NCBI GenBank assembly: GCA_036745095.1
Contig: DAIOGT010000001.1
Location: 26,201 to 90,200, forward strand
DNA from: Pyrinomonadaceae bacterium
GTDB taxonomy: Bacteria > Acidobacteriota > Blastocatellia > Pyrinomonadales > Pyrinomonadaceae
Reading direction: 5' to 3'
DNA: 64,000 nucleotides
Both the position numbers and the translations under genes were made by a program. Within the stretch, counting starts at the first letter, position 1. Every line of letters begins with the position of its first letter. The notes beneath the pieces are model-generated. The model made no database searches, had not been told where the DNA came from, and saw nothing but the letters and a program-made list of their open reading frames with translations. Positions 7,360-39,056 of the stretch are shown here, in pieces.

Positions 7360-7383
7360 CGAAAGTGAAGGTAAAAACAAGAC

Positions 7384-16226: not shown

Positions 16227-16634
16227 ATGACAGTTAGTGATATCGCACGACGAAGCGGCGTTCCCGTACATGTCGTGCGCTACTACACACGAATCGGGCT
16301 GCTTAAGCCTTCGCGTAATCCGCGTAATGGGTACAAACAATACGAGGACTCCGATCTTTCGCGGCTGCGATTTATCCGGCAGGCCAAGAGTCTGGGGTAC
16401 AAACTCGATGAGATCGACCGCATTTTTCGAGAAAGCAGCAGGGGAAAGTCACCGTGTCCGATGGTTCGCTGCATCATCGGAAATCGGATTGAAGAGAATA
16501 GACTCAGGTTGAAGGAACTGGCGGCGCTGCAAAGACGAATGGAGCGAGCGCTGGCTAAATGGGCAAAACTGCCCGACGGTAAGCCCGATGGCCACACAGT
16601 TTGCTATCTCATTGAGTCTACGGCCGGCATGTGA
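16227..16634 (+). CDS. MerR-family transcriptional regulator (heavy-metal-responsive type likely)
   Basis: N-terminal wHTH MTVSDIARRSGVPVHVVRYYTRIGLL, coiled-coil dimerisation helix, and Cys residues (SPCPMVRC, TVCY) in the effector region. Confidence 0.85.
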   Translation: MTVSDIARRSGVPVHVVRYYTRIGLLKPSRNPRNGYKQYEDSDLSRLRFIRQAKSLGYKLDEIDRIFRESSRGKSPCPMVRCIIGNRIEENRLRLKELAALQRRMERALAKWAKLPDGKPDGHTVCYLIESTAGM

Positions 16635-17689: not shown

Positions 17690-18700
17690 ATGATGGATCG
17701 TCGAGCCAGCTCCAAACATATCAAGCGTCTTGTGGCCATTTGCTGTGCCGCTTTCTCGATCATGATTCCCGGAGTGATTGCTCCAGCCCAACAGCAATCA
17801 ACGAGAGATTCTCAGCGATCGGGACAAGGCGTGTCCGCGCGTACCAATTCAGGAAATGATGGTCAGGTAATTGTCAACACGGATTTGGTGACTTTGACCG
17901 TGAGTGTGGTGGACGCTCATGGCCACTACGTGCCCGGCCTCAGCAAGAAGAACTTCACGATTACGGATAACAAAGCTCCGCAGGAGATCACCTTCTTCAG
18001 CGACGCAGACCTGCCCGTGAGCGTGGCTATTGTTTTCGATGTCTCTGGTTCAATGAGCGGCAAGAAGATTGAGCAGGCGAAAGAAGCGCTATCAACCTTC
18101 ATTCAAACCAGTCATCCACAGGATGAGTATTTCCTCATTGGCTTCAACTCGGACCCGGAACTTCTGATTGATGGCTCTCGTGATGGTGACGCAGTCATCA
18201 GAAAACTTTCCTTTGTGGAGCCTCACGGTTCGACCGCACTGTACGATGCGAGCTATCTGGCTCTGGAGCGCGTTATGCGGGGCGCACATATGAAACGGGC
18301 AATCCTAATCATCAGTGATGGTCAGGACAACAACTCGCGCTACAAATTCAGTCAGCTTCGTCGAGCCGTCATGGAGTCTGACGTCATTATGTATGCCATT
18401 GGCATTCAGGGTGGTGTGGGCGGAGTGCTAGCGATGTACGGCAGCCTACTACTTGAAGAGTTGGTCTCGGTTTCCGGTGGTAGGGTCTTCTTCCCGAGAA
18501 AGTCAAGTGGGATGAATGAGGCGCTTGAGCAGATTGCCTTGGAATTGCGACATCAGTATTCAATTGGTTACCGACCGTCGAATTTTACAGCCGATGGCAA
18601 GTGGCATCGTGTCAGAGTCAAGGTGGCGCCACCGCCTGGATTAAATCGTGTGTTCGTGCGCAACCGCGAGGGCTATTACGCGGTTGGATCGCTGCGCTGA
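17690..18700 (+). CDS. secreted VWA-domain protein (second copy)
   Basis: Signal peptide ...[21 protein letters not shown], then TALYDAS and [11 protein letters not shown]. Paralogous to 16716..17666. Confidence 0.8.
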
Positions 18701-18860
18701 CCAAGGAGAGGGCTTTATGACTCGCGAGAATGACTTGTGCACCCGGTCGCGAGGTGGGGAGCGGCACCAGGGTGTGCACAGGCTATCAGCGGTCTCGCTG
18801 GCAAGGGGAGGCCAGAGTTGGGCCGCTGATAGCCGGGTTTCCAGACGCAAAGAGCGAAAC

Positions 18861-19343
18861 ATGAAAAACGTTGAAGTGGAAAAATCGGCACACAGTTTTG
18901 GATCATCTGGTTTGGCCCGACCGAGTAGGCGAAGTTTCTTCGACTACCTGTTGGGAACCAGCGTGGTCGCGACCCTGGGTGCGATCCTTTATCCCATATT
19001 CAAGTTCATGTCTCCGCCCCAAGTGATCGAATCGACCGAAACTTCAGTGGTGGCTGCAAAGATAAGCGAGGTGCCAATCAACTCCGGCAAGATATTCAAG
19101 TTCGGTAGCAAGCCGGGCATCATCATTCGGACTGCCTCAGGAGAGCTAAAAGCGTGCTCGGCGGTATGCACTCACCTCGACTGCATCGTGCAGTATCGCC
19201 CTGACTTTAAGCATATCTGGTGCGCTTGTCACAACGGACATTACAACGTAGATGGTGCAAATATCAGTGGACCACCGCCGCGGCCACTCGAACAATACAC
19301 AGTGAACACTCGGGGCGACGAGATTGTGGTTAGCAAGTCATAA
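18861..19343 (+). CDS. Rieske [2Fe-2S] domain protein with a Tat-like RR signal/anchor
   Basis: [11 protein letters not shown], a TM segment, and CTHLDC...CACHNGHY (CxH...CxxH Rieske ligands). ATG at 18861; the longer track ORF start is rejected. Confidence 0.8.
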
Positions 19344-23920: not shown

Positions 23921-25439
23921 CACTGTTTCCACTCAAGGAGTTCACTCCTTAAAGCTGCGCCGTGTCGGCATCGACACACACCAGGAGCACGTAATCTTCA
24001 TGCGGAGCGATTGTCATGTATGCCGTGCCGAGGGTTTTGCGGCTCAGGCGCGCATTCAGGTTCGGAACGGTGAGCACTCGATAATCGCAACTCTCAATGT
24101 GGTCACCGGCGATTTGCTGGCGCACGGCGAAGCGGGTTTGTCGGAGGTGGCATGGCTAATGTTGGGCGCGAGGGAAGGCGACAGGATTACACTGTCGCAT
24201 GCACCACCACTCGAATCTCTCAGTCAACTCCGGACGAAGATATATGGCAAAAGGTTAGGCGCATCCGCAATGTCCGCCATACTCCGTGACGTGGCGGCTG
24301 GTCTTTATTCTGACATCCATCTTTCTTCGTTTGTTACCGCTTGCGCCGGCGACCGCATGGATCTTCAAGAAATAGTTGATCTCACGCGAGCTATGATCGA
24401 CGTAGGCGAACGACTTGATTGGGAGATAAGTCCAGTTGTGGATAAGCACTGCGTTGGCGGCTTGCCAGGGAATCGCACTACGCTTTTGGTCGTACCGATC
24501 GTGTCAGCATTTGGAATGGTCATGCCAAAGACCTCATCGCGGGCGATTACTTCTCCAGCAGGCACTGCCGACACGATGGAGACACTAGCGCCGGTAAACC
24601 TCGACCTCTCGCAAATGCGGTCCGTCGTTGAACGCGAAGGAGGCTGTATTGCTTGGGGTGGCTCCATACGGTTAAGTCCTGCCGATGATGTTTTGATAAG
24701 AGTGGAGAGGGCGCTTGATCTCGACAGCGAAGGGCAGTTGGTTGCCTCCGTTCTCTCGAAGAAGGCTGCAGCCGGATCGACTCACGTTGTGATTGACATT
24801 CCGGTAGGCCCGACGGCGAAGGTGAGAACTCTAAAGTCAGCTGAAACGCTCGAGGATCACTTGGTCGGGGTCGGCAGAGCCGTAGGCCTCAAAGTGCAGG
24901 TAGCAATTACCGACGGCTCGCAGCCGGTGGGCCGCGGAATTGGGCCGGCACTGGAAGCGAGAGATGTCGTTGCAGTCTTGCATGGCTGGCCTGATGCGCC
25001 GGCGGACCTCCGTGAACGGGCACTCGTATTGGCAGGGCACGTATTGGAGTTCTCGCCTGAAGTTCCAAAGGGCACAGGAAAGGCCTTGGCCCAATCCATA
25101 CTCGATTCAGGGCAAGCGCTGCGAAAGTTTCAGGCCATCTGCGAAGCCCAAGGCGGCATGCGCGAGCCGCCTCGCGCGGCCTACACCAACGAGGTGTTAG
25201 CAAGAAGCGCGGGCCGGATTGCAGGCATTGATAACCGGCGACTGGCGCGAGTTGCCAAACTCGCCGGGGCTCCAACGGCTCCTGCTTCAGGTCTTGATCT
25301 GCACACCTCGCTCGAAGCGCGCGTTGATAAGGGGCAGCCGCTTTTCACTGTTCATGCGGAAGCGCCGGGAGAACTGGCCTACGCACTCGACTACGTAAAA
25401 GCCAATCCGGACATCGTGCAAATTCAGGAGGCGAGATGA
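23913..25439 (+). CDS. thymidine phosphorylase family protein (long N-terminal-extension type)
   Basis: DKHCVGGLPGNRTTLLVVP, SSRAITSPAGTADTME and SVLSKKAAAG are pyrimidine-nucleoside phosphorylase motifs. Confidence 0.85.
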   Translation: MIDTVSTQGVHSLKLRRVGIDTHQEHVIFMRSDCHVCRAEGFAAQARIQVRNGEHSIIATLNVVTGDLLAHGEAGLSEVAWLMLGAREGDRITLSHAPPLESLSQLRTKIYGKRLGASAMSAILRDVAAGLYSDIHLSSFVTACAGDRMDLQEIVDLTRAMIDVGERLDWEISPVVDKHCVGGLPGNRTTLLVVPIVSAFGMVMPKTSSRAITSPAGTADTMETLAPVNLDLSQMRSVVEREGGCIAWGGSIRLSPADDVLIRVERALDLDSEGQLVASVLSKKAAAGSTHVVIDIPVGPTAKVRTLKSAETLEDHLVGVGRAVGLKVQVAITDGSQPVGRGIGPALEARDVVAVLHGWPDAPADLRERALVLAGHVLEFSPEVPKGTGKALAQSILDSGQALRKFQAICEAQGGMREPPRAAYTNEVLARSAGRIAGIDNRRLARVAKLAGAPTAPASGLDLHTSLEARVDKGQPLFTVHAEAPGELAYALDYVKANPDIVQIQEAR

Positions 25440-26413
25440 GGTCAATCGTTCTGCCGTTACCTGGCAACGAACAGTTGGCGGGCTCACTTGTCGCTCAGCT
25501 TGACGCAGAGCTTGGCAAATTCACTATTCGTCGATTTCCCGACGGCGAAACCTACGTGCGCATCGAAACTCCTATTGCCGATCACTCTATCATTCTGGTC
25601 GCTACTCTTGATCGTCCAGACGAGAGAATCATGCCGTTAATCTTGCTGGCCGCCACCGCCAGAGATCTTGGCGCCGCGCAAGTGGGATTGGTCGCTCCTT
25701 ATCTCGCTTACATGCGCCAGGACCATCGCTTCAATGCTGGTGAAGGAGTCACGTCGGTTTACTTTGCGAAGCTGCTCTCTTCTTTTGTTGACTGGCTGGT
25801 GACGGTCGACCCGCATCTGCACCGGCGTAGCTCCCTCGCTGAGATTTATCCGATCCCCACTACTGTTGTGCACGCTGCGCCACGGATTTCAGAGTGGATT
25901 CGCGCCAATGTGAAGAATGCAGTCCTGATTGGTCCGGACAACGAAAGCGCTCAGTGGGCGTCTGCTGTCGCCAGAGAGGCAGGCGCTCCGTGTGTCGTTC
26001 TCGAAAAATTCCGTCATGGTGATCGTGAAGTAGAAGTGACAGTCCCCAGCGTTGAAGGGCTCCGCGATTACACGCCAGTTTTGGTTGACGACATAATCTC
26101 TACCGCCCGCACGATGATCGAAACTATCGAGCACCTGAAACGCGCGGGCCTAACGCCGCCGGTGTGCATCGGAGTGCATGCCGTCTTCGCCCGTGCTGCA
26201 TATGAGGAACTACTTGCGGCGGGACCCGCGCGAATAGTTACGTGCAACACGATAACGCATTCATCCAACGCCATCGACATCGCGGACTTATTGGCCGATG
26301 GCGTTCGCGAGACACAAGGGTCTTTCCAAGCAGCTATGAATCTCTTAAGTGAAAAGAAGTATTCTCATGAACAAGTCATTGGCTCAGATGCGTCAGGAAG
26401 TAAGGACAGGTGA
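25436..26413 (+). CDS. prs: ribose-phosphate diphosphokinase (PRPP synthase family)
   Basis: FPDGETYVRI, then VLVDDIISTARTM (PRPP-binding loop). ATGA-coupled to the upstream gene. Confidence 0.8.
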   Translation: MRSIVLPLPGNEQLAGSLVAQLDAELGKFTIRRFPDGETYVRIETPIADHSIILVATLDRPDERIMPLILLAATARDLGAAQVGLVAPYLAYMRQDHRFNAGEGVTSVYFAKLLSSFVDWLVTVDPHLHRRSSLAEIYPIPTTVVHAAPRISEWIRANVKNAVLIGPDNESAQWASAVAREAGAPCVVLEKFRHGDREVEVTVPSVEGLRDYTPVLVDDIISTARTMIETIEHLKRAGLTPPVCIGVHAVFARAAYEELLAAGPARIVTCNTITHSSNAIDIADLLADGVRETQGSFQAAMNLLSEKKYSHEQVIGSDASGSKDR

Positions 26414-26522
26414 GGCCACTAGCTTTTGATTCGAATACCGACTACGTGTTGCGCCAGAGTCGGGCGCAGTACCGATCGCGTCCCGTCTTAGTTCAAGGCC
26501 TGTTTCCGGCTTTCAAAAAAAG

Positions 26523-26555
26523 CTTGACCTATCACCAGCGCACAGGTTCTAGACT
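26523..26555 (+). promoter_or_regulatory. second copy of CTTGAC-N16-GGTTCTAGACT (TTGACC, 20-nt spacer, TAGACT)
   Basis: Identical flanks and spacing to 16645..16677, with the shared internal CGCAC. About 230 nt upstream of the decahaem cytochrome start. Confidence 0.45.
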
Positions 26556-26784
26556 GCCGTCCTAAGAGCTGACAACGAAGTATTGCGAAAGCATCTCCAA
26601 AGGGTAACCAGAAACGCTGGATACAGAGAAGGCTGTTAGGCACGGCTGGGAGACTCGTGATTGGCAACCCAAGTACCTAGCTCCGGGTCAACTACTTGGG
26701 GCGATAAGTGAAATGGCTTCTGTAACTAGGTCCGCGTTACAGTCCGCTGGTTTCAGCCCCGAAGATCATTAAGGAGGTAAGGTG

Positions 26785-27804
26785 ATGTCGCGCGCAAAGG
26801 CGTTCAAATTTCTGGCGATCTGCGGCGTTCTTCTGTCGGCCTTCTCGTGGGTTAGTTTGAAATCGTTGTCTAATTCATCCGCGAGCGCGATGAACGACGT
26901 ACCTTCGGTCGGAGCGGTTAACATCAGCGATGACTACGTCGGCAGCGATGCGTGCAAGGACTGCCACGAAGATCAATTCAAGAACTTCTCTCATACCGCG
27001 CATGCCAAGCTCGCGACTCTCGGGTCCTGGAAGGGCAAAGTGACTGGCTGCGAGCAATGTCATGGCCCTGGTAAAGCACACATTCAAGAGGGCGATAAAA
27101 CGAAGATCCTCTCCTTTGCGAACAAGTCGCCGAAGGCGATCTCCGAGACATGCCTGACCTGCCACGCTGGCAAAGATGAACACAACAACTTCCGTCGTGG
27201 CGAGCACTGGCGCAACGATGTCGGCTGCACCGACTGTCACTCGTCACATAGTCCCGAACCAACCACCGGTAATCCCAGATCGAATACTTTCGTGTCCGAA
27301 GCCGCGCGGCGCAATACCGATACGTTGGTGGCGCACATGTTGCGCAATAGCGAACCACAACTCTGCCTAAATTGCCACACAGAGATGAAGGCGCAGTTCA
27401 ACATGCCCTTTCATCACCGCGTGCTCGAGGGCACGATGAAGTGCACCGATTGCCATAACGCGCATGGCGGCTTCGAACTCAAACAGACGAGACTTTCGGT
27501 TGGCGCTGATTCGGGTTGTCTCAAGTGTCATGTAGATAAGCAAGGCCCATTCGTCTTCGAGCATGCGCCGCTCAAGATCGACGGCTGTGCCATATGTCAC
27601 TCGCCGCACGGTTCCGCTAACCCGAAATTGCTGGTGCGATCACAGATCAGGCAGTTGTGTCTGGAATGCCACAGCAACGTCGCTGAGATAGGTGCGCCGA
27701 ACACCCCTAGTTTCCATAATCAGGCGACCGTCCGATTCCAGAATTGCACGACGTGTCACGTCAAGATTCACGGATCGCAGGTGGATCCTACCTTCTTCCG
27801 ATAG
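26785..27804 (+). CDS. periplasmic decahaem c-type cytochrome, MtrA/DmsE/PioA-like
   Basis: Ten CxxCH motifs by hand count (CKDCH, CEQCH, CLTCH, CTDCH, CLNCH, CTDCH, CLKCH, CAICH, CLECH, CTTCH) in ~340 aa. Signal peptide present. C-terminal CHVKIHGSQVDPTFFR. AAGGAGG SD. Confidence 0.9.
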   Translation: MSRAKAFKFLAICGVLLSAFSWVSLKSLSNSSASAMNDVPSVGAVNISDDYVGSDACKDCHEDQFKNFSHTAHAKLATLGSWKGKVTGCEQCHGPGKAHIQEGDKTKILSFANKSPKAISETCLTCHAGKDEHNNFRRGEHWRNDVGCTDCHSSHSPEPTTGNPRSNTFVSEAARRNTDTLVAHMLRNSEPQLCLNCHTEMKAQFNMPFHHRVLEGTMKCTDCHNAHGGFELKQTRLSVGADSGCLKCHVDKQGPFVFEHAPLKIDGCAICHSPHGSANPKLLVRSQIRQLCLECHSNVAEIGAPNTPSFHNQATVRFQNCTTCHVKIHGSQVDPTFFR

Positions 27805-27852
27805 GGTAGCGTCGAGATAGGGTCGCAGTCCTATTGAGCGAGGATCGTTGAT

Positions 27853-29952
27853 ATGAAGAACAGAACCGCGTTGAGTCTGCGTTTGTTGGCATGCTTGCTG
27901 ATGTTGGTCTTTGGCATAATCACTGCCGGCGCGCAAACTCCCACGCCTTCCCCCAGTCCCAAGGACCAGAAAGCGGCGGCCAGCCAACAGTCAAGCGCCA
28001 CGAACGAGGCTCAAGTATTAGGAAGTTACAACGTAACTTCAAGTATAGAAGTTGGTGTTCGTGGTCTCTCGGTTGATGGCAATAACAACAAGTATCAGAG
28101 CGATCTGAACTACAGACCGGGCTTGCGCGTCTTTGATTCCAGCTTCTTACTGCAGCATAAGGATCGTCGTGGCACGCTCTTCGATGAATTTCTCGTTAAT
28201 ACTTCAGGATGGGGTGGGGATCCGCAGGGCTACACCCGCATCATGGCTGAGAAATCAGGAATTTATCGCTTTGACGCAAATGTCCGCCGTGTGAAGTACT
28301 TCAATAACCTTTCAAATCTTGCCCTCGGACAGCACACCAATAATACGCGAATAAACGTTGGCGATTATGACCTGACGTTGCTCCCTGAAAATCAGAAACA
28401 CAAGTTCTATCTCGGCTATTCACGAAATACTTTGAACGGGCCAGGAATAACCACCTATGACTTCTCGCGCGACGAATACGCGATCAACACGAATCAGGAA
28501 ACTCGCGCAAATAATTTCCGCGTCGGAATGGACGCCCGGCTCGGCCCGATTGATATCTCACTCCTTCAGGGCGCGCGCTACTTCAAGGACGATACCACCT
28601 ACAATGTGCAATTCACGAATGTGGGCAACAATCCAACGAACACTTCGCGGATTGATAGGCTGTTTCGCGAGCTGCCGACAGGCGGTCGCCATTTCTTTAC
28701 GCGTGTTAGTGCTCATACGCTGCTGGCAAAAAGGCTCGACGTCACCGCCCGCTACATCTACACCAGCTCCACCACCAGGTTCTCGTTCTTCGAACAGCTT
28801 TCAGGTCGTTCTGGAATTTCTCCGGGCAATATCATAAATCAGGAGACGTTTACCACCAGCGGAAAGGTCACACGGCCGTACGCGCTGGGAGAACTGGGCG
28901 TCACCTTCATGGCCACAGACAAGTTCAGAATCTCTAACACGTTCCGCTTCGACAACTTTCGTATCAATGGCGCGGACGTACTTTCCGACTTCCTGCGCCA
29001 ATCAACCCCCGCCGGCGTTCCCCTCCCACCGACGACAACCCTTACCACTTTCGTGCGCTCGACAAAGTATCGCCGCATCCTGAACACGATTGAGGGGGAT
29101 TACCAGTTCAGTCCGCGCTTCGCTGTCCATGGGGGATTTCGTATTTCACATCGAGACATTGAACACTTCGAAGTCACCGACGACGAGGTAGAGAACCCGG
29201 TGTTTGACAATAACACCCATTCCGTCATCTTCGGTTTCAAGGCTCGGCCCGCTTCGAGCTGGAACATCTATTTCGATGGCGAGCGCGGTACCTCGGACAG
29301 CGTGTTCACGAGACTGGAAAGTAACAGGTATACGAACTTTCGCGCTCGCACCCGCTATGCGCCGAACGGCAAAGTCTCACTGAACGCCTCGGTCATAACA
29401 AGAGACAACAGGAATCCTTCCGAAGTAATCACAGAGATTTCGGGGTTGCCGGCAAATCTTCTGCCGAACAGTTTGGACGTTGACATCAAGAGTCGAGTTT
29501 TCACTTCGACTATCGATTGGACACCCAAGCCAAAATTCTCCTTGAGCGGGGGCTACACGCATTTGCGGGTAACGAGCAACGCGGGAATCATCCTGTTTCT
29601 GGCTAACGTAAGCACGCTGGGCCAGAGCCAGTACTTCATGAGGGACAACTTCTTCTTCATCAACACGCTCATCAATCCGATTCCTCGCTTGACGGTGTTC
29701 GCGAGTTACCGCATCAACCGGGATCCGGGCCAGGGTAATTTGGTGGCGCCCTCCAACAACCTGATCATCAGCTCGTATCCTATGACGTTCCAATCTCCCG
29801 AAGCACGAGCCACTCTTAAAGTAACGAATCGCATTGATTGGAACATCGGCTACCAGTATTACAACTACCGCGACTGGTTTGTGCCGGGACAGAACTACCA
29901 CTCCCACCAGCCCTACACGTCGTTGCGCATATATTTCGGCCGTAAAGGTTAG
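27853..29952 (+). CDS. outer-membrane beta-barrel, MtrB/PioB-like porin partner (tentative)
   Basis: 699 aa. Signal peptide ...ITAGAQT. Alternating-hydrophobicity, Y/F/N/R-rich sequence throughout. Lies immediately downstream of the decahaem gene, and its size matches MtrB-class barrels. Confidence 0.7.
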   Translation: MKNRTALSLRLLACLLMLVFGIITAGAQTPTPSPSPKDQKAAASQQSSATNEAQVLGSYNVTSSIEVGVRGLSVDGNNNKYQSDLNYRPGLRVFDSSFLLQHKDRRGTLFDEFLVNTSGWGGDPQGYTRIMAEKSGIYRFDANVRRVKYFNNLSNLALGQHTNNTRINVGDYDLTLLPENQKHKFYLGYSRNTLNGPGITTYDFSRDEYAINTNQETRANNFRVGMDARLGPIDISLLQGARYFKDDTTYNVQFTNVGNNPTNTSRIDRLFRELPTGGRHFFTRVSAHTLLAKRLDVTARYIYTSSTTRFSFFEQLSGRSGISPGNIINQETFTTSGKVTRPYALGELGVTFMATDKFRISNTFRFDNFRINGADVLSDFLRQSTPAGVPLPPTTTLTTFVRSTKYRRILNTIEGDYQFSPRFAVHGGFRISHRDIEHFEVTDDEVENPVFDNNTHSVIFGFKARPASSWNIYFDGERGTSDSVFTRLESNRYTNFRARTRYAPNGKVSLNASVITRDNRNPSEVITEISGLPANLLPNSLDVDIKSRVFTSTIDWTPKPKFSLSGGYTHLRVTSNAGIILFLANVSTLGQSQYFMRDNFFFINTLINPIPRLTVFASYRINRDPGQGNLVAPSNNLIISSYPMTFQSPEARATLKVTNRIDWNIGYQYYNYRDWFVPGQNYHSHQPYTSLRIYFGRKG

Positions 29953-30223
29953 GAATTCACGTAATAATTCAAGACCGGTTATCATTGTTCGTCCCGACCT
30001 CTAGAGGGAACTGAAACCGGGAACATGAAATGGGAGCGCCGAAACTCTCACTCGAAAAGCGTCTCTTGATCAGCACGTTAGGAGATTGCGCGCGAGAAGC
30101 AAGTGCCATAACGCTGCCACTCCATCTGGTATTACTTCGGTGGCCTGACGCTGTTTCTCTTTAGGTGGTAGGCTGACGGATCCATACAACCGCGCTCTCG
30201 AGGCGCAAAGGAGAAGAAAAACA

Positions 30224-30793
30224 ATGATACGAACTGCAACTCTTTCCACTCTAATCTTCGTTTCAATCCTCTTGGTCGGTTGTGCGCAGACGAATACAAA
30301 CAACGCGAACGTCGTAAGCAATGCTAACGTTGCGACAAACACCGCGAACGCTAACGCCAGCCCCCTAAGTAATACGAATGCCAGTCCCACCAGTAATGCT
30401 AACGTCAACACGCAGCGAGAAGGCGAAACAGGCATGGAGACAATGGACAAGGGCATGGAGGAGATGAAGCATGGCGCCGAGCAGATGGATGAGGCCGAGG
30501 AAAAGATGGATAAGGACATGATGAGTCACGGCATGCAGATGGCCAAGAACGGCCAAGAGATGGTCAAGAAAGGCATGGATATGGAATCGGACATGGACAT
30601 GTCTCAACATAAGGAGATGATGGATAAAGGGATGGACATGATGGATCAGGGCATGCAGATGATGAGCAAGGGGATGGACGCCAAGGATAAGAAGATGATG
30701 CATCAGGGCATGAACATGATGAAGAACGGCATGGACATGATGAACAAACGCAAGGATATGATGAAGAAGGGGATGGGAATGAAGCACATGTAA
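30224..30793 (+). CDS. lipoprotein with an Asn/Ala/Thr-rich linker and an extremely Met-rich C-terminal domain
   Basis: Lipobox ILLVGC. NANV/NTANANAS low-complexity linker. Then ~119 aa with ~37 Met by hand count (GMDMM, GMQMM, GMNMM repeats). Confidence 0.8.
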   Translation: MIRTATLSTLIFVSILLVGCAQTNTNNANVVSNANVATNTANANASPLSNTNASPTSNANVNTQREGETGMETMDKGMEEMKHGAEQMDEAEEKMDKDMMSHGMQMAKNGQEMVKKGMDMESDMDMSQHKEMMDKGMDMMDQGMQMMSKGMDAKDKKMMHQGMNMMKNGMDMMNKRKDMMKKGMGMKHM

Positions 30794-30824
30794 AGGCGGG
30801 AAAGATAAAGTCTGAACAACGCGC

Positions 30825-30842
30825 AAGCACTCCATAGTGCTT
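30825..30842 (+). terminator. short hairpin after the Met-rich gene
   Basis: AAGCACT-ccat-AGTGCTT, 32 nt after the stop. No strong U-tract. Confidence 0.3.
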
Positions 30843-30891
30843 CGAATTAGTTACTGGTATTTCATCTGAATCTGACAAGGAATCCGCTGTT

Positions 30892-32796
30892 ATGAATTAC
30901 GGATTAGGGAGGCGCGCGCGTCCAGGCAACCGCTTTCTGCCAGCGGTGATGGTGGGTTGCATTTTGTTATGGTCTGGCGCCGCTCTTCCGCAGTCTGAGC
31001 ACGATGTCCATCACCCTGGTCAGAATGCCAATTCTCAAATGCCCCAACAGTCACCTTCACCGACAAGCATGGCCTCTCCGATGACCAGTCCTTCCTCAAG
31101 TGGGATGATGGGTGAGGGCGGCATGGAGGGAATGAAGGGGATGGAGGGAATGATGGGACAGCCGCGCAAGGAGCTCTATCCATCATTAATCGACTTACCC
31201 AATCTGTCCCCAGATCAGCGCGCCCAGATAGAACGGTTGGCTCAAGAACGCATGGAGTCGGGTCGGGCGTCAATGGCCGTCGCACTAGAACGACTGTCCG
31301 CCGCTTCCGCAAAACAGGATTACGCAGCTATGCAGGAAGCGTCGGCACAGCTGCGTGAGGCGCTCGCCCAATATGAGAGCGGGCTGGCGGCGCAGCGGGC
31401 ACTTAGAGACGGAAAAGTACCTAGCGACGTAGCACTTCAATGGTTTCAGCGCAACATGAATCTGCTGCCTGAGATCGGCACCGAAACTCCGCATGGAATC
31501 TTCGGGCTATCGTGGTTCCACTACATCACCATGATCATCCTGATCGCGTTTGCCGTCACGATGATCTGGATGTACTTCCACAAGATGCGGCGTGCGAACG
31601 CGCTGCTCTCCAGACTGGCGACCGCTACTTCGGACGCCAGTCTTATAGTTAGTCCGGCTACTTCTTCCGTCTCCCCTGCCACTACTGGCGGCGCACCAAC
31701 TTACGCACCTCCGAGCGAACCGATACCCGTCAGCTCTGATATCGCGCCATCGAAGTCGAATTCCTGGTCTGGTTCGTTACGAGTTGTCCGAATATTTCAG
31801 GAGACACCAGACGTTAAGACGTTTCGTTTTGTCGATCCGGATGGTGGCAAACTGCCGTTCACTTACCTGCCCGGTCAGTTCATAACTGTTACCATTGTCT
31901 CAGATGGAGTACCAGTAAGACGGTCCTACACTATTGCCTCATCTCCAACAAGACGGGACTCATGTGAAATCACGGTCAAGCGTGAGCAATATGGAGTTGT
32001 ATCTCAGTATCTGCATGATCAAGTCCATATAGGTGATCTGGTCCAGCTCATCGGCCCCTCAGGGAAGTTCACGTTTACTGGGCAGGAATCGGACAGCCTG
32101 GTGCTGATCGCCGGCGGTGTCGGTGTTACGCCGATGATGAGCGTTATTCGTTACCTGACTGATCGTTCGTGGTCTGGCGAGATCTTCTTCCTGTTCGGTT
32201 GCAAATCTGAAATCGACATTATCTTTAGAGAAGAGATTGAATATTTGCAGAAGCGGCACGCAAATCTACACGTCACGATTCTTCTCAATAAGAAACCTGA
32301 CGATGCGAAGAGTCCTTACCTGAGTGGCTACATTACCAAAGAGGTGGTTACTGAACGCGTGCCAGCGATCGTTTCGCGGCGCGTGCATATTTGCGGACCA
32401 CCACCAATGATGGAAGCCGTGAAACGAACACTTCTCGAATTGGAAGTGCCTGAAGAAAACATTAAGACCGAAATTTTTGCTGGAAAAACTCCGCCACCGA
32501 AAACTTCTCTGGGCGGCGCCAACGCAACGGCGACGTCGGCGATCTGTACTTTTGCTCGGTCAAAAAAAACCGCAGTGCTGCCGCCTGACAAAACAGTTTT
32601 GGAGGCATCGGAAGATGTTGGCGTGAACATTGGCTACTCGTGCCGAATAGGCGTTTGCGGGATTTGTAAAACAAAACTCCTTTCAGGCTCCGTGACCATG
32701 GAAGTGCAGGAAGCCTTAACGGATGACGATAAGGCGCAGAACATCATTCTCGCTTGCCAAGCCAAAGCGGTTGCGGATGTCGCAGTCGATGCATAA
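30892..32796 (+). CDS. fusion protein: signal peptide + Met-rich/LTXXQ-like periplasmic domain + one TM + FNR-type FAD/NAD(P)H reductase + plant-type [2Fe-2S] ferredoxin domain
   Basis: MASPMTSPSSSGMMGEGGMEGMKGMEGMMG. LSPDQRAQIERL. TM WFHYITMIILIAFAVTMIWMYF followed by HKMRRAN. RRSYTIASSP (RxYS FAD motif). LIAGGVGVTPMMS (NAD(P) binding). CRIGVCGICKTKL...ILACQA ([2Fe-2S] ligands). Confidence 0.8.
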   Translation: MNYGLGRRARPGNRFLPAVMVGCILLWSGAALPQSEHDVHHPGQNANSQMPQQSPSPTSMASPMTSPSSSGMMGEGGMEGMKGMEGMMGQPRKELYPSLIDLPNLSPDQRAQIERLAQERMESGRASMAVALERLSAASAKQDYAAMQEASAQLREALAQYESGLAAQRALRDGKVPSDVALQWFQRNMNLLPEIGTETPHGIFGLSWFHYITMIILIAFAVTMIWMYFHKMRRANALLSRLATATSDASLIVSPATSSVSPATTGGAPTYAPPSEPIPVSSDIAPSKSNSWSGSLRVVRIFQETPDVKTFRFVDPDGGKLPFTYLPGQFITVTIVSDGVPVRRSYTIASSPTRRDSCEITVKREQYGVVSQYLHDQVHIGDLVQLIGPSGKFTFTGQESDSLVLIAGGVGVTPMMSVIRYLTDRSWSGEIFFLFGCKSEIDIIFREEIEYLQKRHANLHVTILLNKKPDDAKSPYLSGYITKEVVTERVPAIVSRRVHICGPPPMMEAVKRTLLELEVPEENIKTEIFAGKTPPPKTSLGGANATATSAICTFARSKKTAVLPPDKTVLEASEDVGVNIGYSCRIGVCGICKTKLLSGSVTMEVQEALTDDDKAQNIILACQAKAVADVAVDA

Positions 32797-32802
32797 AAAA
32801 CG

Positions 32803-33564
32803 ATGAAAAGAGAGCGTATCCTTGTCGGTGGGTTACTGTTGCTCCTGCTAATTCTGTGGCTGGGGTTCCTGATCCACCGCTCGCCACGCTTTCCTGGAAG
32901 CCTATTCGGTAACGTACTCGCGATAACAGGCGCTCTGCTGATGCTGGTATTCCCTCTCGCCTATGCTGCTGCTAAACGAATTCCTCCCGTCAAGAGAATC
33001 CTGACGCGGCGAATCTCAATCGCGACTTTGCTGACCTGGCATCTCTACACAGGAATAGTCGGTTCCATCCTTGCGATCATCCACACCGGTCATCGGTTTG
33101 AAAGCAATCTTGGCATTGTTCTGACTGCAATGATGCTGCTGACGGTATTGAGCGGCTATGTCGGGAGACACTTCTTGAGCTACGTGACACTCGAACTTCA
33201 CGAGAAACAAACCCTGCTCAACAAGCTCGCGACGATTTACAACCAGACTGTTGCCGAACTAGGACGTCAACCCAATGTAACCGTAACTGCAGTGGCGTCG
33301 CACGGATTCTTTACGCCGATATTCAGCGGGTATGTTGCGCCTGGACCTTCGGCGAGCGAGAGCACGACACCAGTTTCTTATCGCGCCATTCACCTGGCAG
33401 AGTCAATTGCGGATGTGGAGTATGCGATTAAAACTCACGAGCTGTTTAAGCGCAGATCCGCGGTTTGGCTGAAAGTACACATCGCAACGTCAGCAGCGTT
33501 TTATGTCCTGTTAATTTTGCACGTCTGGAGCGAGATCTATTTCGGCCTGCGATGGCTGTCCTAG
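32803..33564 (+). CDS. five-TM membrane protein with two intramembrane His pairs (candidate di-haem b, ferric-reductase-domain-like)
   Basis: TM3 WHLYTGIVGSILAIIH and TM5 VHIATSAAFYVLLILH each carry His at i and i+14. Confidence 0.55.
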   Translation: MKRERILVGGLLLLLLILWLGFLIHRSPRFPGSLFGNVLAITGALLMLVFPLAYAAAKRIPPVKRILTRRISIATLLTWHLYTGIVGSILAIIHTGHRFESNLGIVLTAMMLLTVLSGYVGRHFLSYVTLELHEKQTLLNKLATIYNQTVAELGRQPNVTVTAVASHGFFTPIFSGYVAPGPSASESTTPVSYRAIHLAESIADVEYAIKTHELFKRRSAVWLKVHIATSAAFYVLLILHVWSEIYFGLRWLS

Positions 33565-33574
33565 AGACGGGGTT

Positions 33575-34369
33575 ATGAAGAAACCTTTATTAGGTTCCCT
33601 AATCGCTATTGCGCTTGTGGTGTTGACCTTTGCCGCAATTCGAGCTACGACGTGGCAGAAGCACGTGAGCCCCGGGCAACTATCAGCCGCGCACGCGTCA
33701 ATGGCCCAAAACTGCGCAGCATGCCACACACCATACGAAGGTGCTGAAAACAGCAAGTGCATCAGTTGCCATGCAAACAATCAAGCACTGCTGCAACGTC
33801 AGCCGACTGCATTTCACGCCAGCATTGGAAACTGCACGCAATGCCACTTCGAACATCAAGGCATAAACGCACGGCTCGTCACCATGGACCACAACAAGCT
33901 GGCTGAAATCGGGTTCGATCTTATGGCGGCCGCGGCTTCTGACTCTGAGCAAATGAAGGTGAGAACACAGCTCAAGGGATGGTTAAGAATGCATGAGGGA
34001 ACACTTCCCACTATCAGCCACCCCCGCGTCACCTCGCTTGAGGCGACCCTTGACTGTGTCTCCTGCCATGGTACGAAAGACCGGCACCAGGGACTCTTCG
34101 GAAAGGGTTGCGTTTCTTGCCATGAGACGACGCAATGGACCATTGCAGATTTTCAGCATCCCTCTCCACGCTCGACCGATTGCGCTCAATGTCACCAAGC
34201 GCCACCGAGCCACTATATGATGCACTTTGAAATGGTTTCCAAAAAGATCGCCGCTCAAGGCCAAGGAAATGGGTGTTGCGAGGGCGTCCAGGTAAATCAA
34301 TGCTATCGCTGCCACCGGACAACTTCCTGGAATGACATTCAAGGCGTCGGTTATTACAAGCATCATTAA
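33575..34369 (+). CDS. membrane-anchored heptahaem c-type cytochrome
   Basis: N-terminal TM LLGSLIAIALVVLTFAAI. Seven CxxCH motifs by hand count (CAACH, CISCH, CTQCH, CVSCH, CVSCH, CAQCH, CYRCH). Confidence 0.85.
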   Translation: MKKPLLGSLIAIALVVLTFAAIRATTWQKHVSPGQLSAAHASMAQNCAACHTPYEGAENSKCISCHANNQALLQRQPTAFHASIGNCTQCHFEHQGINARLVTMDHNKLAEIGFDLMAAAASDSEQMKVRTQLKGWLRMHEGTLPTISHPRVTSLEATLDCVSCHGTKDRHQGLFGKGCVSCHETTQWTIADFQHPSPRSTDCAQCHQAPPSHYMMHFEMVSKKIAAQGQGNGCCEGVQVNQCYRCHRTTSWNDIQGVGYYKHH

Positions 34370-34966
34370 GGTACATCTCTTAAGCCTCCCCGCGCCTGGA
34401 GATGCGCCTCAATGTCATAAGGTCATAAAGGTCACGATTAGAAATAAAAGTCAAGAAATTGAAAAGAGCCAGGGACAGAAGTTCGGATAAACTGAATCCC
34501 TATTCAGAGAGTCAGACGAGGCTAAGCAACCGGCCGCAGGTTCGCGTGCTTGGCATCGCTTAACTATTTAAGGGGGGCTGCTGATGAAACTACCAACTCG
34601 CGGTTCATGCCCTTTCTTCAGCCGAATTAGTGCGGACAAGTGTCGCGGCGCGACCGTGGGCGTCCGGCACTCGCGCCCGCGCGCTCACGGTGATTGACTA
34701 TGCCCCTCATTCCGCTTTGACTAGGAAACGCAACGGGAGGGAGATGAAACTGATTCGACCGGAGATAGAGAGGCGTACGCGGGGGTGACGTGACCGCCGC
34801 CGACCGCTGGGCCTCCGCTGAACCGCCTGGGATTCCCCACGACAGGCAGCCCGTTGCAAGCTCAGCCGAGCAACGCCGTCAGGAGCAGTGGGGAGATTAG
34901 GGTTGCCGAATACCTTTCGATGGCTGTCGGCAGCGACACTGACAAGCCGTAGAAACGGGAGGCCAA

Positions 34967-36871
34967 ATGGAGACCGAACTTATTTCCAGGCGTTCGCTGT
35001 TGCAGGGCACCGGCGCGCTGGTCCTGTTGGCGGCGATAGAACACCTTTTACCTTCGTATGCCCGGGCGAGCGCCGCCGGACCCGCAGCGCAACAGTTGTC
35101 GGCACTGAGCGGCAACACGATTGAGTTAACCGTCGCAGAGACGCCGTTCCGCGTCGGCAACCGCACGGGGAAGGCGGTCACGATTAACGGCACTGTGCCC
35201 GGGCCCCTGATCCGTTTGCGTGAGGGCCAGGACGTCACGCTCCGCGTGACGAACCGCCTGCGGGAGACCTCTTCGATCCACTGGCACGGGATACTACTGC
35301 CGCCCGAGATGGACGGTGTGCCCGGCGTGAGCTTCGCGGGCATCAAGCCGGGGACGACCTTCACCTACCGCTTCCCGGTCAAGCAGTACGGCACCTACTG
35401 GTATCACAGCCACTCGGGCGGACAAGAGCAGAAGGGGATGTACGCCCCGATGATCATCGACCCGCGCGAGGACGATCCCGTAGAGTACGACCGCGAGTAC
35501 GTGGTGGTGCTCTCGGACTGGACCTTCCGGTCTGGGGTGGGAATAATCGGCGACCTCAAAAAGCAGGCGGGCTTCTTCAACTTCCAGCAGCGCACGATGG
35601 GCGAGTTCATCTCTGACGTGTCCGAGTATGGGTGGGCGCCGACTTGGGACAACTACCTGACGTGGGCGCGCATGCGAATGGATCCGACCGACTTCCTGGA
35701 CGTGACCGGCCGAGAGTACACCTACCTGATGAACGGCCTGTCGCCCGAAGCCAACTGGACGGGATTGTTTCGTCCGGGCGAGCGCGTGCGCCTACGCTTC
35801 ATTAACTCGGGCTCTATGACTTTTTTTGACGTACGGATTCCGGGCTTGAAGTTAACAGTCGTCCAGGCCGACGGGCAGAACGTGCACCCAGTGGAGGTGG
35901 ACGAGTTCCGCATGGGACCGGCCGAGACCTACGACGTGGTCGTCATGCCGGCCGCGGAGCGAGCCTACACGGTCTTCGCCGAGGCGCTTGACCGCAGCGG
36001 CTACGCGCGCGGCACCCTTGCTCCCCGCAGCGGGATGAGTGCGGAAGTCCCGACGCGTCGTCCGCGCCCGCTGCGCACAATGGAAGAGATGGGCATGAGC
36101 ATGGAAGGCGAGATGCCGGGCATGGCGCTCGAGATGGACAAGAATGTTAAGGCCGGCGGCAGGCCGATGTCCGGGATGGATCACGGCGCGGGGGCGGGCG
36201 CCGGCGGGCACCAGACGCCGGCCCCGCAGCCGCCGGGCGGCGGGCAGCCGACGCCGACTCCGCAGCAGCACGACATGAAGAACATGGCAGGAGCGGGGGG
36301 AAGCTCGGTGATCCCGGGCGCGACACCCGTTCGGCACGGGCCCGACAAGCACGGTTCGGGCAACCAAGCGGTGCCCGACTCCACGCGCAGCCGACTGGAC
36401 GACCCCGGCACTGGGCTCGGGGGGAGCGGCCGGCGCGTGCTCGTCTACACCGACCTCAAGGCGCTTGAGAAGTTTTTTGACACGCGGCCGCCGGAACGCG
36501 AACTCGAACTCCACGCGACCGGACACATGGAGCGCTTCATCTGGTCCTTCGACGGCAAGAAGTTTTCGCAGGACCCTCGCCCCGTGCACTTCCGCCACGG
36601 CGAGCGGCTGCGCTGGACGTTTGTCAACGACACGATGATGGAGCACACGTTCCACCTGCACGGGATGTGGATGCACCTCGATAACGGAGCCGGCGAGTAT
36701 CTGCCGCGCAAACACACGGTCATCGTCAAACCAGCTGAACGGGTCTCGGTCGCTGTCACCGCGGACGCGCCCGGCCGGTGGGCCTTCCACTGCCACCTAC
36801 TGGTGCACATGGAGACGGGTATGTTCCGCATAGTCGAGGTGTCGGCCGGGGCGACGGGAGGGCCGTCATGA
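34967..36871 (+). CDS. copA: copper-resistance multicopper oxidase (CopA/PcoA type)
   Basis: Tat signal ISRRSLLQGTG. Copper ligands HWHG, WYHSH, HLHGMW, HCHLLVHMETGM. Met-rich insert MEEMGMSMEGEMPGMALEMD...MSGMDHG. Confidence 0.9.
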   Translation: METELISRRSLLQGTGALVLLAAIEHLLPSYARASAAGPAAQQLSALSGNTIELTVAETPFRVGNRTGKAVTINGTVPGPLIRLREGQDVTLRVTNRLRETSSIHWHGILLPPEMDGVPGVSFAGIKPGTTFTYRFPVKQYGTYWYHSHSGGQEQKGMYAPMIIDPREDDPVEYDREYVVVLSDWTFRSGVGIIGDLKKQAGFFNFQQRTMGEFISDVSEYGWAPTWDNYLTWARMRMDPTDFLDVTGREYTYLMNGLSPEANWTGLFRPGERVRLRFINSGSMTFFDVRIPGLKLTVVQADGQNVHPVEVDEFRMGPAETYDVVVMPAAERAYTVFAEALDRSGYARGTLAPRSGMSAEVPTRRPRPLRTMEEMGMSMEGEMPGMALEMDKNVKAGGRPMSGMDHGAGAGAGGHQTPAPQPPGGGQPTPTPQQHDMKNMAGAGGSSVIPGATPVRHGPDKHGSGNQAVPDSTRSRLDDPGTGLGGSGRRVLVYTDLKALEKFFDTRPPERELELHATGHMERFIWSFDGKKFSQDPRPVHFRHGERLRWTFVNDTMMEHTFHLHGMWMHLDNGAGEYLPRKHTVIVKPAERVSVAVTADAPGRWAFHCHLLVHMETGMFRIVEVSAGATGGPS

Positions 36872-37758
36872 AAGCCTACTTACGAGCCGCCCCTACCTTT
36901 GTGCTCCTCTGTCTGTTGAGCGTGGCGACCGCCTCCGCGCAAACCAACCCGCACGCATCTCACGCCCCGAGTCCATCTCCGAGTTCGAGTCCGAGTCCCA
37001 CTCCGAGCGCGATACCCTCCCCCGCCGCTTCGGCGCAGACGGGCGGGAAGGGGAGCGGGCAAGAGAACCTGTTACCCAAGAAGGACTGGCCCAGCCCGGT
37101 GGACGACGAGATGCAGCACACCTACGTGCTCGCCGACGTGCTGGAGTTCCGCCCGGCGCATGACGGGGGCGACTTCCGGTGGGACGTCGAGGGCTGGCGC
37201 GGGGGCGACTTCAACCGGCTGTGGTTCAAAAGCGAGGGGGAGCGCGGCACCGCCTTTAAGGCCGAGTACGACATAGACCTGCAACTGCTCTACGGGCGCT
37301 TCGTCAAGAGATATTACGACTTTCAGGTCGGCGTCCGCGCCGAGACGCACAGCTTTCGCGGTGCCAACGTGACGCGCGCGCACGCCGTCGTCGGGATAGA
37401 GGGGCAAATTCCTTACCGCTACGAGCTCGAGACTGCCCTGTTCGTTAGCCACCAGGGCGACGTCTCGGGGCGCGTCTCGCTTACCAGGGATTATCTGATG
37501 ACCCAGCGCTGGATTCTCCAGGGGCGCTTTGAAACCAACATCGCGGCACACCGCGTTGAACGGTTCGGAGTCGGCAGAGGCCTGAACAACGTCGAGGCGG
37601 GCTTGCGCCTGCGCTACGAATTCCGCCAGCGCAAGGTCGGGCCGTACTTCGGCGTCTCGTTCGAGCGCAGTTTCTTCGGAACAGCGGACCTCGTGCGGCA
37701 GGACGGCGGCGACCCGAGCCAAGTGCGCTTCGTGGTGGGCGTGCGGCTGTGGCGCTAA
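36868..37758 (+). CDS. copB: copper resistance protein B (CopB/PcoB outer-membrane protein)
   Basis: ATGA-coupled to copA. Signal peptide ...ATASAQ. Motifs YVLADVLEFR, WDVEGWRGGDFNRLWFKSEGE and a GVRLWR end are typical of PcoB. The N-terminus is Ser/Pro-rich instead of Met-rich. Confidence 0.85.
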   Translation: MKAYLRAAPTFVLLCLLSVATASAQTNPHASHAPSPSPSSSPSPTPSAIPSPAASAQTGGKGSGQENLLPKKDWPSPVDDEMQHTYVLADVLEFRPAHDGGDFRWDVEGWRGGDFNRLWFKSEGERGTAFKAEYDIDLQLLYGRFVKRYYDFQVGVRAETHSFRGANVTRAHAVVGIEGQIPYRYELETALFVSHQGDVSGRVSLTRDYLMTQRWILQGRFETNIAAHRVERFGVGRGLNNVEAGLRLRYEFRQRKVGPYFGVSFERSFFGTADLVRQDGGDPSQVRFVVGVRLWR

Positions 37759-39016: not shown

Positions 39017-39056
39017 CAGGAAAGCTCAAGGCAACCAGAAACGAGTTATTACGAAG

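Follow-up and report, generated by a model that had tools for sequence, protein, structure and literature searches.

The six genes of the cluster

The DNA analysed here, a stretch of 64,000 nucleotides from a Pyrinomonadaceae bacterium (hereafter the window), contains six consecutive genes, designated g1 to g6, that encode a decahaem cytochrome, an outer-membrane barrel, a Met-rich lipoprotein, a flavin and iron–sulfur reductase, a membrane protein and a heptahaem cytochrome; the wider window around them is a metal-resistance island. An earlier interpretation, made from the letters of the DNA alone (the sequence-only reading), had joined all six into a single trans-envelope electron conduit. 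The six open reading frames (ORFs) that it listed are present and intact on the + strand, with intergenic gaps, from g1 to g6 in order, of 48, 271, 98, 6 and 10 nucleotides, and both the density of their motifs and the above-cutoff scores of the models that they match are far beyond chance. Their union in one conduit, as described below, did not hold. In what follows g1 and g2 are referred to as module A, g3 to g6 as module B, and g4, g5 and g6 together as the trio.

g1 (26785..27804, + strand) encodes a secreted decahaem c-type cytochrome of the MtrA/DmsE/PioA type, as had been proposed: it carries ten CxxCH motifs, scores 234.3 bits against TIGR03508, the model of the DmsE-family decahaem cytochromes (cutoff, 192.2), and has chain A of 6r2q (MtrA) as its best sequence match among solved structures (E 2.6e-29). 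The product of g2 (27853..29952, + strand) is an outer-membrane beta-barrel of 699 amino acids, MtrB-like by the fold of its predicted structure. No family in Pfam or NCBIfam was matched by g2 at E ≤ 0.1, and hence no MtrB/PioB sequence model. An AlphaFold model built with 34 homologues (predicted local distance difference test score, or pLDDT, 83.9) forms a barrel with some 26–28 strands, for which the top Foldseek match in the PDB is MtrB (6r2q_B; E 8.6e-15, TM-score 0.60/0.64); 22-strand TonB-dependent receptors reached TM-scores of 0.34–0.47. The suggestion that g2 is an MtrB/PioB-like barrel is thus borne out by fold but not by any sequence model. More than 1000 g2 homologues exist; only a few are assigned to a named organism, in each case one of the Pyrinomonadaceae or Acidobacteriota.

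The g1–g2 pair is a member of the MtrAB/PioAB kind and is common in Acidobacteriota, where homologues of PioAB have already been reported (PMC10654088). It resembles MtrAB of Shewanella, PioAB of Rhodopseudomonas and MtoAB of Sideroxydans in the TIGR03508 score of g1 and its closest structure, and in the size of g2, its position 48 nucleotides after g1 and the proximity of its model to MtrB. It differs from them in that g2 escapes the MtrB/PioB sequence models, in that, as the sequence-only reading had noted, no MtrC-like surface cytochrome is found anywhere in the window, and in that the window offers no CymA, NapC or bc-type partner, save for a Rieske gene out of its usual place and a defunct piece of a cytochrome b gene (see below).

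g3 (30224..30793, + strand) encodes, in agreement with the earlier description, a Met-rich lipoprotein; 38 of its 189 residues are Met (20%) and its lipobox is LLVGC. It is a probable periplasmic Cu(I) binder and an accessory of module B. In the closest relatives g4 is immediately preceded by a g3-like Met-rich gene, and in L008–L011 and L092 the gene in this position is a g3 homologue with 64–73% identity.

g4 (30892..32796, + strand) encodes a bitopic FNR/[2Fe-2S] reductase. Its matches to the Pfam families FAD_binding_6, NAD_binding_1 and Fer2 span residues 297–626 and follow an N-terminal extension of 290 amino acids. Across the family the N-terminus has a signal peptide and then a conserved P(D/E)EHAxHHP motif (HxxHH is present in 61 of 62 N-terminal domains), a stretch rich in Met and Gly (the median Met count of the whole N-terminal domain is 16), and a KELYPSLM motif with a helical region ahead of the transmembrane helix. 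The latter, the only one in the protein, covers residues ~202–230, bears the conserved His210 and Met214 and is followed by basic residues. The FNR motifs RxYT, GxGxTP and CG are kept in the family, as is the plant-type ferredoxin pattern CX4CX2CX29C, so that the cytoplasmic half proposed earlier, an FNR reductase with a plant-type [2Fe-2S] domain, was correctly recognized. Because a single transmembrane helix precedes the FNR and Fer2 domains, the N-terminal domain should lie outside; the His/Met-rich domain is accordingly predicted to be periplasmic, and the flavin and iron–sulfur cofactors cytoplasmic. All of the scores of g4 against the NCBIfam equivalogs of FNR–Fer2 proteins were below cutoff (226.5 against 500, 216 against 383, 183.9 against 420.8 and 155 against 430 bits), so g4 is not simply a known oxygenase reductase and falls outside the characterized FNR–Fer2 families. 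A search for stand-alone paralogues of the periplasmic domain of g4 returned none.

g5 (32803..33564, + strand) encodes a DUF4405-type membrane protein with five transmembrane helices, predicted from its conserved His pairs to be a dihaem cytochrome b. DUF4405 is matched by 30 of 34 family members and Ferric_reduct, weakly, by five of the 34; g5 itself scores 17.9 bits against Ferric_reduct, below the gathering cutoff of 28. The structural model (pLDDT 72.9) has the five transmembrane helices and a cytoplasmic helical insert. Two His pairs with i/i+14 spacing had been pointed out in g5, His80/94 and His212/226, and both are present; however, His212 is only ~90% conserved and conservation favours His226/240 as the second pair. 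In 34 diverse sequences H25, H80, H94, H97, H226 and H240 are invariant, with H80/H94 on the third and H226/H240 on the fifth transmembrane helix, 14 residues apart within each pair. From this pattern we infer that g5 binds two b haems, an inner one between His80 and His226 and an outer one between His94 and His240. Two further pairs of residues, His210/Met214 in the transmembrane helix of g4 (window positions 31519 and 31531) and His25/His97 at the periplasmic face of g5 (32875 and 33091), might together bind a further metal ion or haem where g4 and g5 meet.

g6 (33575..34369, + strand) encodes a periplasmic heptahaem c-type cytochrome. The seven CxxCH motifs confirm the haem count given earlier; the N-terminal hydrophobic segment, read then as an anchor, may instead be a cleavable signal peptide. 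Seven CxxCH motifs are found in 63 of 65 family members, together with seven further conserved His residues, a pattern consistent with seven bis-His haems. Sequences in the PDB were not matched by g6, nor was Cytochrom_NNT, and its score against the NrfH model was 22.5 bits (cutoff, 134.2); the quinol dehydrogenases of the NapC/NirT/NrfH/CymA group have four or five haems, against the seven of g6.

Two fusions were seen at trio loci. In L091 (9995–11632) and in eight other loci from Planctomycetota the C-terminus of g5, predicted to be periplasmic, is fused to DUF547, and g6 follows; in the metagenome locus L004, an ORF of 590 amino acids (6228–8000) directly upstream of the g4 homologue joins a multihaem cytochrome c to Ni_hydr_CYTB, in the manner of CbcL.

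Distribution and synteny of the trio

To survey the trio, one genome per species was scanned with an alignment of g5, and the 80 loci retrieved were searched by tblastn with the proteins of the window. Homologues of g5 are present in 124 species-level genomes, and the 80 loci represent at least eight phyla (Bacteroidota, Acidobacteriota, Planctomycetota, Nitrospirota, Nitrospinota, Hydrogenedentota, Binatota and Verrucomicrobiota, with Gammaproteobacteria that include Legionella, Tahibacter and Lysobacter), across which g5 is 47–65% identical. In 70 of the loci g4C, g5 and g6 adjoin one another in this order on one strand, and contig ends cut nearly all of the others; g6 is directly downstream of g5 in 78, the remaining two stopping at a contig edge. 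Neither g1 nor g2 was found within 10 kb to either side of the trio at any of the 80 loci. Homologues of g5 also occur on 54 plasmids of PLSDB, 27 of them conjugative.

Full-length g4 homologues, with the N-terminal extension, are abundant in Bacteroidota as well as in Acidobacteriota. In Ilyomonas, in Pontibacter and in one metagenome contig, the gene after the g4 homologue invariably encodes an unannotated membrane protein of 253–256 amino acids and the next one a multihaem cytochrome of ~255 amino acids, surrounded by metal-resistance genes, and no decahaem cytochrome or barrel is present. The closest relatives of g4 have the same character. One, at 87% identity, lies in the order CusB–CusA–…–SLT–VWA–g3–g4–g5–g6; a pair at 78% shows this layout minus the VWA gene upstream of g3; and one at 90% lies in the order CzcA–outer-membrane efflux protein–CzcB–g3–g4, where the contig stops at g4. 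All of these are without g1 and g2. On plasmid pNXO2 of Sphingomonas sanxanigenens, the genes for a phosphoketolase, a heavy-metal regulator and a hypothetical protein are followed by the trio, annotated as ‘FAD-binding oxidoreductase’, ‘iron reductase’ and ‘cytochrome c3 family protein’, and then by two dehydrogenases, CopA, CopB, a DUF2933 protein and a P-type ATPase. This order resembles that of the window downstream of g6, but the two dehydrogenase genes separate the trio from copA. The names of trio proteins in databases are generic throughout (those just quoted, or ‘hypothetical’), and no NCBIfam model stands behind the name ‘iron reductase’ of the RefSeq homologue of g5.

Judged from this pattern of co-occurrence, g4–g5–g6 appears to be a conserved, horizontally mobile and self-contained unit. 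The inner-membrane part of the route proposed in the sequence-only reading, from NAD(P)H through FAD, [2Fe-2S] and haem b to haem c, coincides with this co-conserved trio.

Native surroundings of g1–g2 and the junction with g3

The g2 survey comprised 80 loci from a metagenome scan with an alignment of g2, plus L093, giving 81. A g1 homologue, 51–73% identical to g1 of the window, is directly upstream of the g2 homologue in 72 of them, and a contig end cuts most of the other nine. None of g3, g4, g5, g6, copA or copB was found at any of the 81 loci. On long contigs two types of surroundings are seen downstream of g1–g2. In the first (L005, L007 and L093), multihaem cytochromes, some with matches to MtrC/F domains, are followed by a monohaem cytochrome c and then by a NapC/NirT-type cytochrome of 521–537 amino acids. 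In the second (L006, L143, L113, L161 and others), a Rieske protein is encoded together with a cytochrome b, which in the loci examined in detail has 353–368 amino acids and comes after the Rieske gene. The window has an intact Rieske [2Fe-2S] gene of its own (18648..19343, + strand, with a likely true start near 18858; Pfam Rieske and TM_PetC), which sits 7.4 kb upstream of g1 among genes of the island; in 12 g2 loci a gene 58–78% identical to it lies downstream of g2, in most of them immediately so. By its similarity, the window Rieske gene would be a displaced native partner of module A. Neither a remnant of a Crp-type regulator nor the missing multihaem and NapC-type partners were found elsewhere in the window. 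It is likely that module A is cut off here from its native partners, whether Rieske/cytochrome b or NapC/NirT-type plus multihaem. The earlier proposal of a pyridine-nucleotide link to the outer-membrane pair finds no parallel in these relatives, whose partners are quinol-linked Rieske/cytochrome b or NapC/NirT-type proteins. In the window, module A could be served by partners encoded at another genomic site or could be in decay; that it receives electrons from g6 is the least likely of the three.

The 271-nucleotide spacer between g2 and g3 contains what is left of such a partner. A cytochrome b pseudogene (30030..30162, + strand), with one frameshift and two in-frame stops, is cut after ~44 codons; the remnant reads ‘...[24 protein letters not shown]’ and the intact N-terminus ‘[23 protein letters not shown]’. 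The cytochrome b genes that it matches (tblastn E 1e-7 to 5e-7) are those found behind g2 and the Rieske gene in L143, L106 and L161, and the remnant marks the spacer as a rearrangement scar. Contig L176 is 92.5% identical in DNA to window positions 27183–29972, and the similarity is gone 20 nucleotides past the stop codon of g2; in relatives of the copper island, DNA similarity to the window starts only at 30336. The sole contig that shares the g2/g3 adjacency, L177, is 100% identical to the window and therefore from the same population. Since the spacer bears the cytochrome b scar, L176 diverges after g2, the match to the island starts beyond it and the relatives of g4 lack g1 and g2, the six-gene arrangement appears to be a recent, lineage-specific juxtaposition. 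A candidate for a chimeric cytochrome b start, o204 (19359–19973), proved instead to belong to the island, and homologues of it are seen at trio loci.

Copper genes around the trio and a proposed route for electrons

In the window, copA, for a multicopper oxidase, and copB (34967..37758, + strand; Pfam Cu-oxidase_3, Cu-oxidase_2, Cu-oxidase_1 and CopB) directly follow g6, so that the copper island next to copAB described in the sequence-only reading is there, and its counterpart is seen at most trio loci: copper or other metal genes lie within 10 kb in 43 of the 51 trio loci that are at least 15 kb long. Within the same distance, over all 80 loci, an ORF with at least 10% Met was found in 34, a multicopper oxidase in 29, a P1B-ATPase in 29, an outer-membrane efflux protein in 13, an RND pump in 11 and a DUF326 protein (the four-helix-bundle copper-binding type) in nine; regulators of the MerR type, or AraC regulators that are HMA-like, are near the trio in 12. 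The genes for CopA and CopB are fused, giving a product of ~755 amino acids, downstream of the trio in L012 (12958–15225) and in other loci from Bacteroidota.

We propose the following route through module B. Cytoplasmic NAD(P)H would reduce the FAD of g4, which would pass electrons to the [2Fe-2S] cluster of the same protein; these would then cross the inner membrane through the b haems of g5, by way of the inner His80/His226 and then the outer His94/His240 site, and reach g6, on the periplasmic side, with its seven bis-His c haems. The likeliest acceptor would be Cu(II) held at the conserved HxxHH of the periplasmic domain of g4, and the Cu(I) formed would move to the neighbouring Met-rich stretch of g4, to g3 and finally to proteins that deal specifically with Cu(I), namely RND pumps of the Cus type, Met-rich proteins and the CopA oxidase. 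Flow through module B must be outward, since the NAD(P)+/NAD(P)H couple has a potential far below those of Cu(II)/Cu(I) and Fe(III)/Fe(II). The opposite direction, in the manner of metal oxidation by PioAB or MtoAB, had also been entertained; for module B it is not feasible, as established redox potentials make the reduction of NAD(P)+ by Cu(I) or Fe(II) an uphill reaction and no energy-coupling device is present.

The two synteny surveys and the scar between g2 and g3 favour two separate modules over one conduit, a distinction that we regard as very probable, and it is likely that the region is the junction of two independent modules inside an integrative metal-resistance island of ~50 kb. 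That module B is an NAD(P)H-driven exporter of electrons to the periplasm we hold to be fairly likely; that Cu(II) is its physiological acceptor is a tentative assignment, to which we give a little less than even odds. For the reading as a whole, an orphaned MtrAB-type pair beside an undescribed exporter whose likeliest acceptor is Cu(II), we put the probability at roughly three in four.

Several points weigh against this reading. Eight of the 51 long trio loci have no recognizable metal gene nearby, and the synteny survey reached no further than 10 kb to either side. A Foldseek comparison of the g5 model (pLDDT 72.9) with solved structures gave no significant match (best E 0.28; Dcytb and cytochrome b561 appeared at E about 1, with TM-scores of about 0.26), and a profile search of PDB sequences with g5 gave none, so the case for haem b binding is drawn from the His pattern. 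Making Cu(I), the more toxic form, from Cu(II) beside a multicopper oxidase that oxidizes Cu(I) looks futile unless the Cu(I) is channelled. Moreover, g1 and g2 are intact and adjoin module B in this population, as L177 attests, so that a functional capture may have taken place. Finally, a full-text search of the literature on the trio or its context returned no paper that describes it and no experiment; for this reason we infer the function of module B from the evidence set out above.

Alternative explanations

Of the other explanations, the one that fares best keeps module B as an exporter and changes the acceptor, which would be Fe(III), Ag, Au, Hg, Cr or Te, or else an enzyme of periplasmic repair or redox buffering, in the way of Fre–MsrQ–MsrP or of Scs/DsbD, systems directed against oxidative damage caused by copper. 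The name ‘iron reductase’ attached to some g5 homologues in UniRef and RefSeq would fit, as would the non-specific reduction of metals by multihaem cytochromes, the Czc-type RND pumps and other metal genes that also occur in the islands, and the eight long loci without a copper gene nearby. However, that name has no NCBIfam model behind it, the conserved HxxHH and Met-rich domain and the Met-rich partner proteins are ligand sets of the copper type, and the genes most often seen nearby are specific to copper (multicopper oxidase, CopB, Cu-type P1B-ATPase, and CusB with a heavy-metal-binding domain), whereas genes for MsrP, thioredoxin-fold proteins or siderophores are not consistent neighbours of the trio. 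A non-copper acceptor, metal or repair enzyme alike, thus seems unlikely, if not strongly so.

Alternatively, g5 and g6 could be quinol-linked, as are CbcL, ImcH and CymA, with electrons drawn from the quinone pool and g4 unrelated or regulatory. The weak NrfH-like score of g6 (22.5 bits) is in line with this, b cytochromes of the DUF4405 and Ni_hydr_CYTB types often bind quinones, and a CbcL-like fusion adjoins the trio in one locus, L004. Yet g6 is far under the NrfH cutoff (134 bits) and does not match Cytochrom_NNT, g4 is immediately upstream of g5 in effectively every locus (6 nucleotides away in the window) and has a transmembrane helix of its own with conserved His and Met, and L004 encodes its CbcL-like protein apart from the trio, which speaks against that function for the trio itself. 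We regard a quinol-linked role as improbable.

A single conduit, in which electrons from NAD(P)H would pass from g6 to g1 threaded in g2 and on to Cu(II) or Fe(III) outside the cell, or would run the other way to oxidize metals, is still less probable. Six intact genes on one strand, with complementary predicted locations, an MtrA/MtrB-like g1 and g2 whose usual partners are lacking here, which makes g6 the only nearby periplasmic multihaem donor, and the repetition of the adjacency in the 100%-identical metagenome contig L177 speak for it; but the two halves do not co-occur in the 80 trio and 81 g2 loci or in the g4 relatives of 78–90% identity, the 271-nucleotide g2–g3 spacer holds the cytochrome b pseudogene, and the 92.5%-identical L176 diverges right after g2. 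Least probable of all is a conduit newly assembled in this lineage for the reduction of extracellular Cu(II) or another metal, quinone-independent and built by capture of the MtrAB-like pair, with electrons moving from g6 to g1 inside g2 and so to the cell surface.

Comparison with known systems

The exporter proposed for module B is closest in logic to NOX, FRE1 and STEAP and to bacterial NOX-like proteins, in which a flavin takes electrons from NAD(P)H and two bis-His b haems, stacked across the membrane, relay them to an acceptor outside. FRE1 and STEAP act before transporters with Met motifs, converting Cu(II) to Cu(I). The resemblance extends to the His pairs of g5, 14 residues apart on the third and fifth transmembrane helices, and to its weak Ferric_reduct match. 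Unlike those proteins, the trio is split into separate polypeptides, has an additional [2Fe-2S] cluster between flavin and haem and a heptahaem cytochrome c on the outer side, and relies on a g5 of the DUF4405 type, with five transmembrane helices, that is below the Ferric_reduct cutoff.

Fre–MsrQ–MsrP of Escherichia coli, an envelope stress-defence system built around a periplasmic methionine sulfoxide reductase, likewise leads from a cytoplasmic flavin reductase of the FNR family through a haem b membrane protein to a periplasmic partner. In contrast to Fre, g4 is tethered to the membrane and has both a [2Fe-2S] domain and, in the periplasm, a domain for metal binding; a heptahaem cytochrome takes the place of the molybdoenzyme as periplasmic partner, and the context is one of copper resistance.

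The cofactor domains of g4 (FAD_binding_6, NAD_binding_1 and Fer2) are those of phthalate dioxygenase reductase, BenC, PaaE, GbcB and Hcr, with the domain order of GbcB, Hcr and PaaE, and its best similarities in NCBIfam and the PDB are to such FNR–[2Fe-2S] reductases of oxygenase systems. The 290-residue periplasmic domain with its transmembrane extension, however, is found in no solved relative, and g4 has g5 and g6 as conserved partners rather than an oxygenase.

Reduction of Cu(II) to Cu(I) at the membrane, the reaction proposed for the trio, also has precedents. NDH-2 has cupric reductase as a side activity. CcoG/FixG is described as a cupric reductase that converts Cu(II) to Cu(I) at the membrane (Marckmann et al., 2019, PNAS, as cited in PMC11213822). 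No sequence relationship to the trio was detected for either. CcoG is a [4Fe-4S] protein that serves cbb3 oxidase assembly on the cytoplasmic side, whereas the electrons of the trio would end up in the periplasm and its genes travel alongside those for resistance.

To our knowledge, the step in the periplasm that turns Cu(II) into Cu(I) ahead of the Cus pumps, the CusF-type chaperones and Met-rich proteins is poorly resolved, and we know of no established dedicated cupric reductase of the periplasm. The trio is a concrete candidate for this role, being widespread and highly conserved, with a built-in His/Met metal-binding domain and copper-resistance neighbours. If confirmed, it would represent a new bacterial route from pyridine nucleotides to the periplasm that bypasses the quinone pool, and a prokaryotic counterpart, split over several proteins, of the metalloreductases of the NOX/FRE/STEAP kind. 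The locus also illustrates how, in a resistance island of mosaic make-up, neighbouring genes may look like an operon without being one; the MtrAB-like pair is here a bystander of rearrangement.

Other genes of the island

Scans of the whole window with Rfam models and for tRNA genes returned no matches. Because a consensus scan for promoters and terminators over 26300–35100 gave fewer matches than shuffled sequence, it is no guide to operon boundaries. No IS-like (insertion sequence) or att-like repeats flank g1–g2; the repeats found were those of Met codons within g3 and chance pairs only.

The island also encodes a P-type ATPase and two RND efflux sets, in one of which CusB bears a heavy-metal-binding domain. 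Just beyond the second set is a gene for a tyrosine recombinase of the phage-integrase family (54456–55592, − strand), which probably marks the boundary of an integrative metal-resistance element. A regulator of the MerR family, of the heavy-metal-responsive type (16227..16619, + strand), shares 46% identity with a MerR-family regulator from L004, whose gene precedes the g4 homologue there by 3.1 kb. The G+C content of copA–copB (34967–37758) is 0.60–0.66, against 0.51–0.54 in the flanking genes, and because it is so markedly above that of its flanks it suggests a segment acquired separately within the island.

Some less expected genes are found in the same surroundings. At 14394–16154 a single ORF of 586 amino acids combines regions 2 and 4 of an ECF sigma factor with an SLT lytic transglycosylase domain; in close relatives the SLT part is encoded alone (345–355 amino acids). 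A thymidine-phosphorylase-like gene (23913–26413 in the window) recurs beside the trio in unrelated phyla, one Legionella species included, usually paired with a gene resembling that for phosphoribosyl-pyrophosphate synthetase (L004, L013, L014, L044 and L045). Likewise, a phosphoketolase gene (38958–41432 in the window, and on pNXO2 of Sphingomonas) travels with copper islands, and genes for glycogen phosphorylase, succinate-semialdehyde dehydrogenase, alcohol dehydrogenase and DeoC are carried in the copper islands of the trio.

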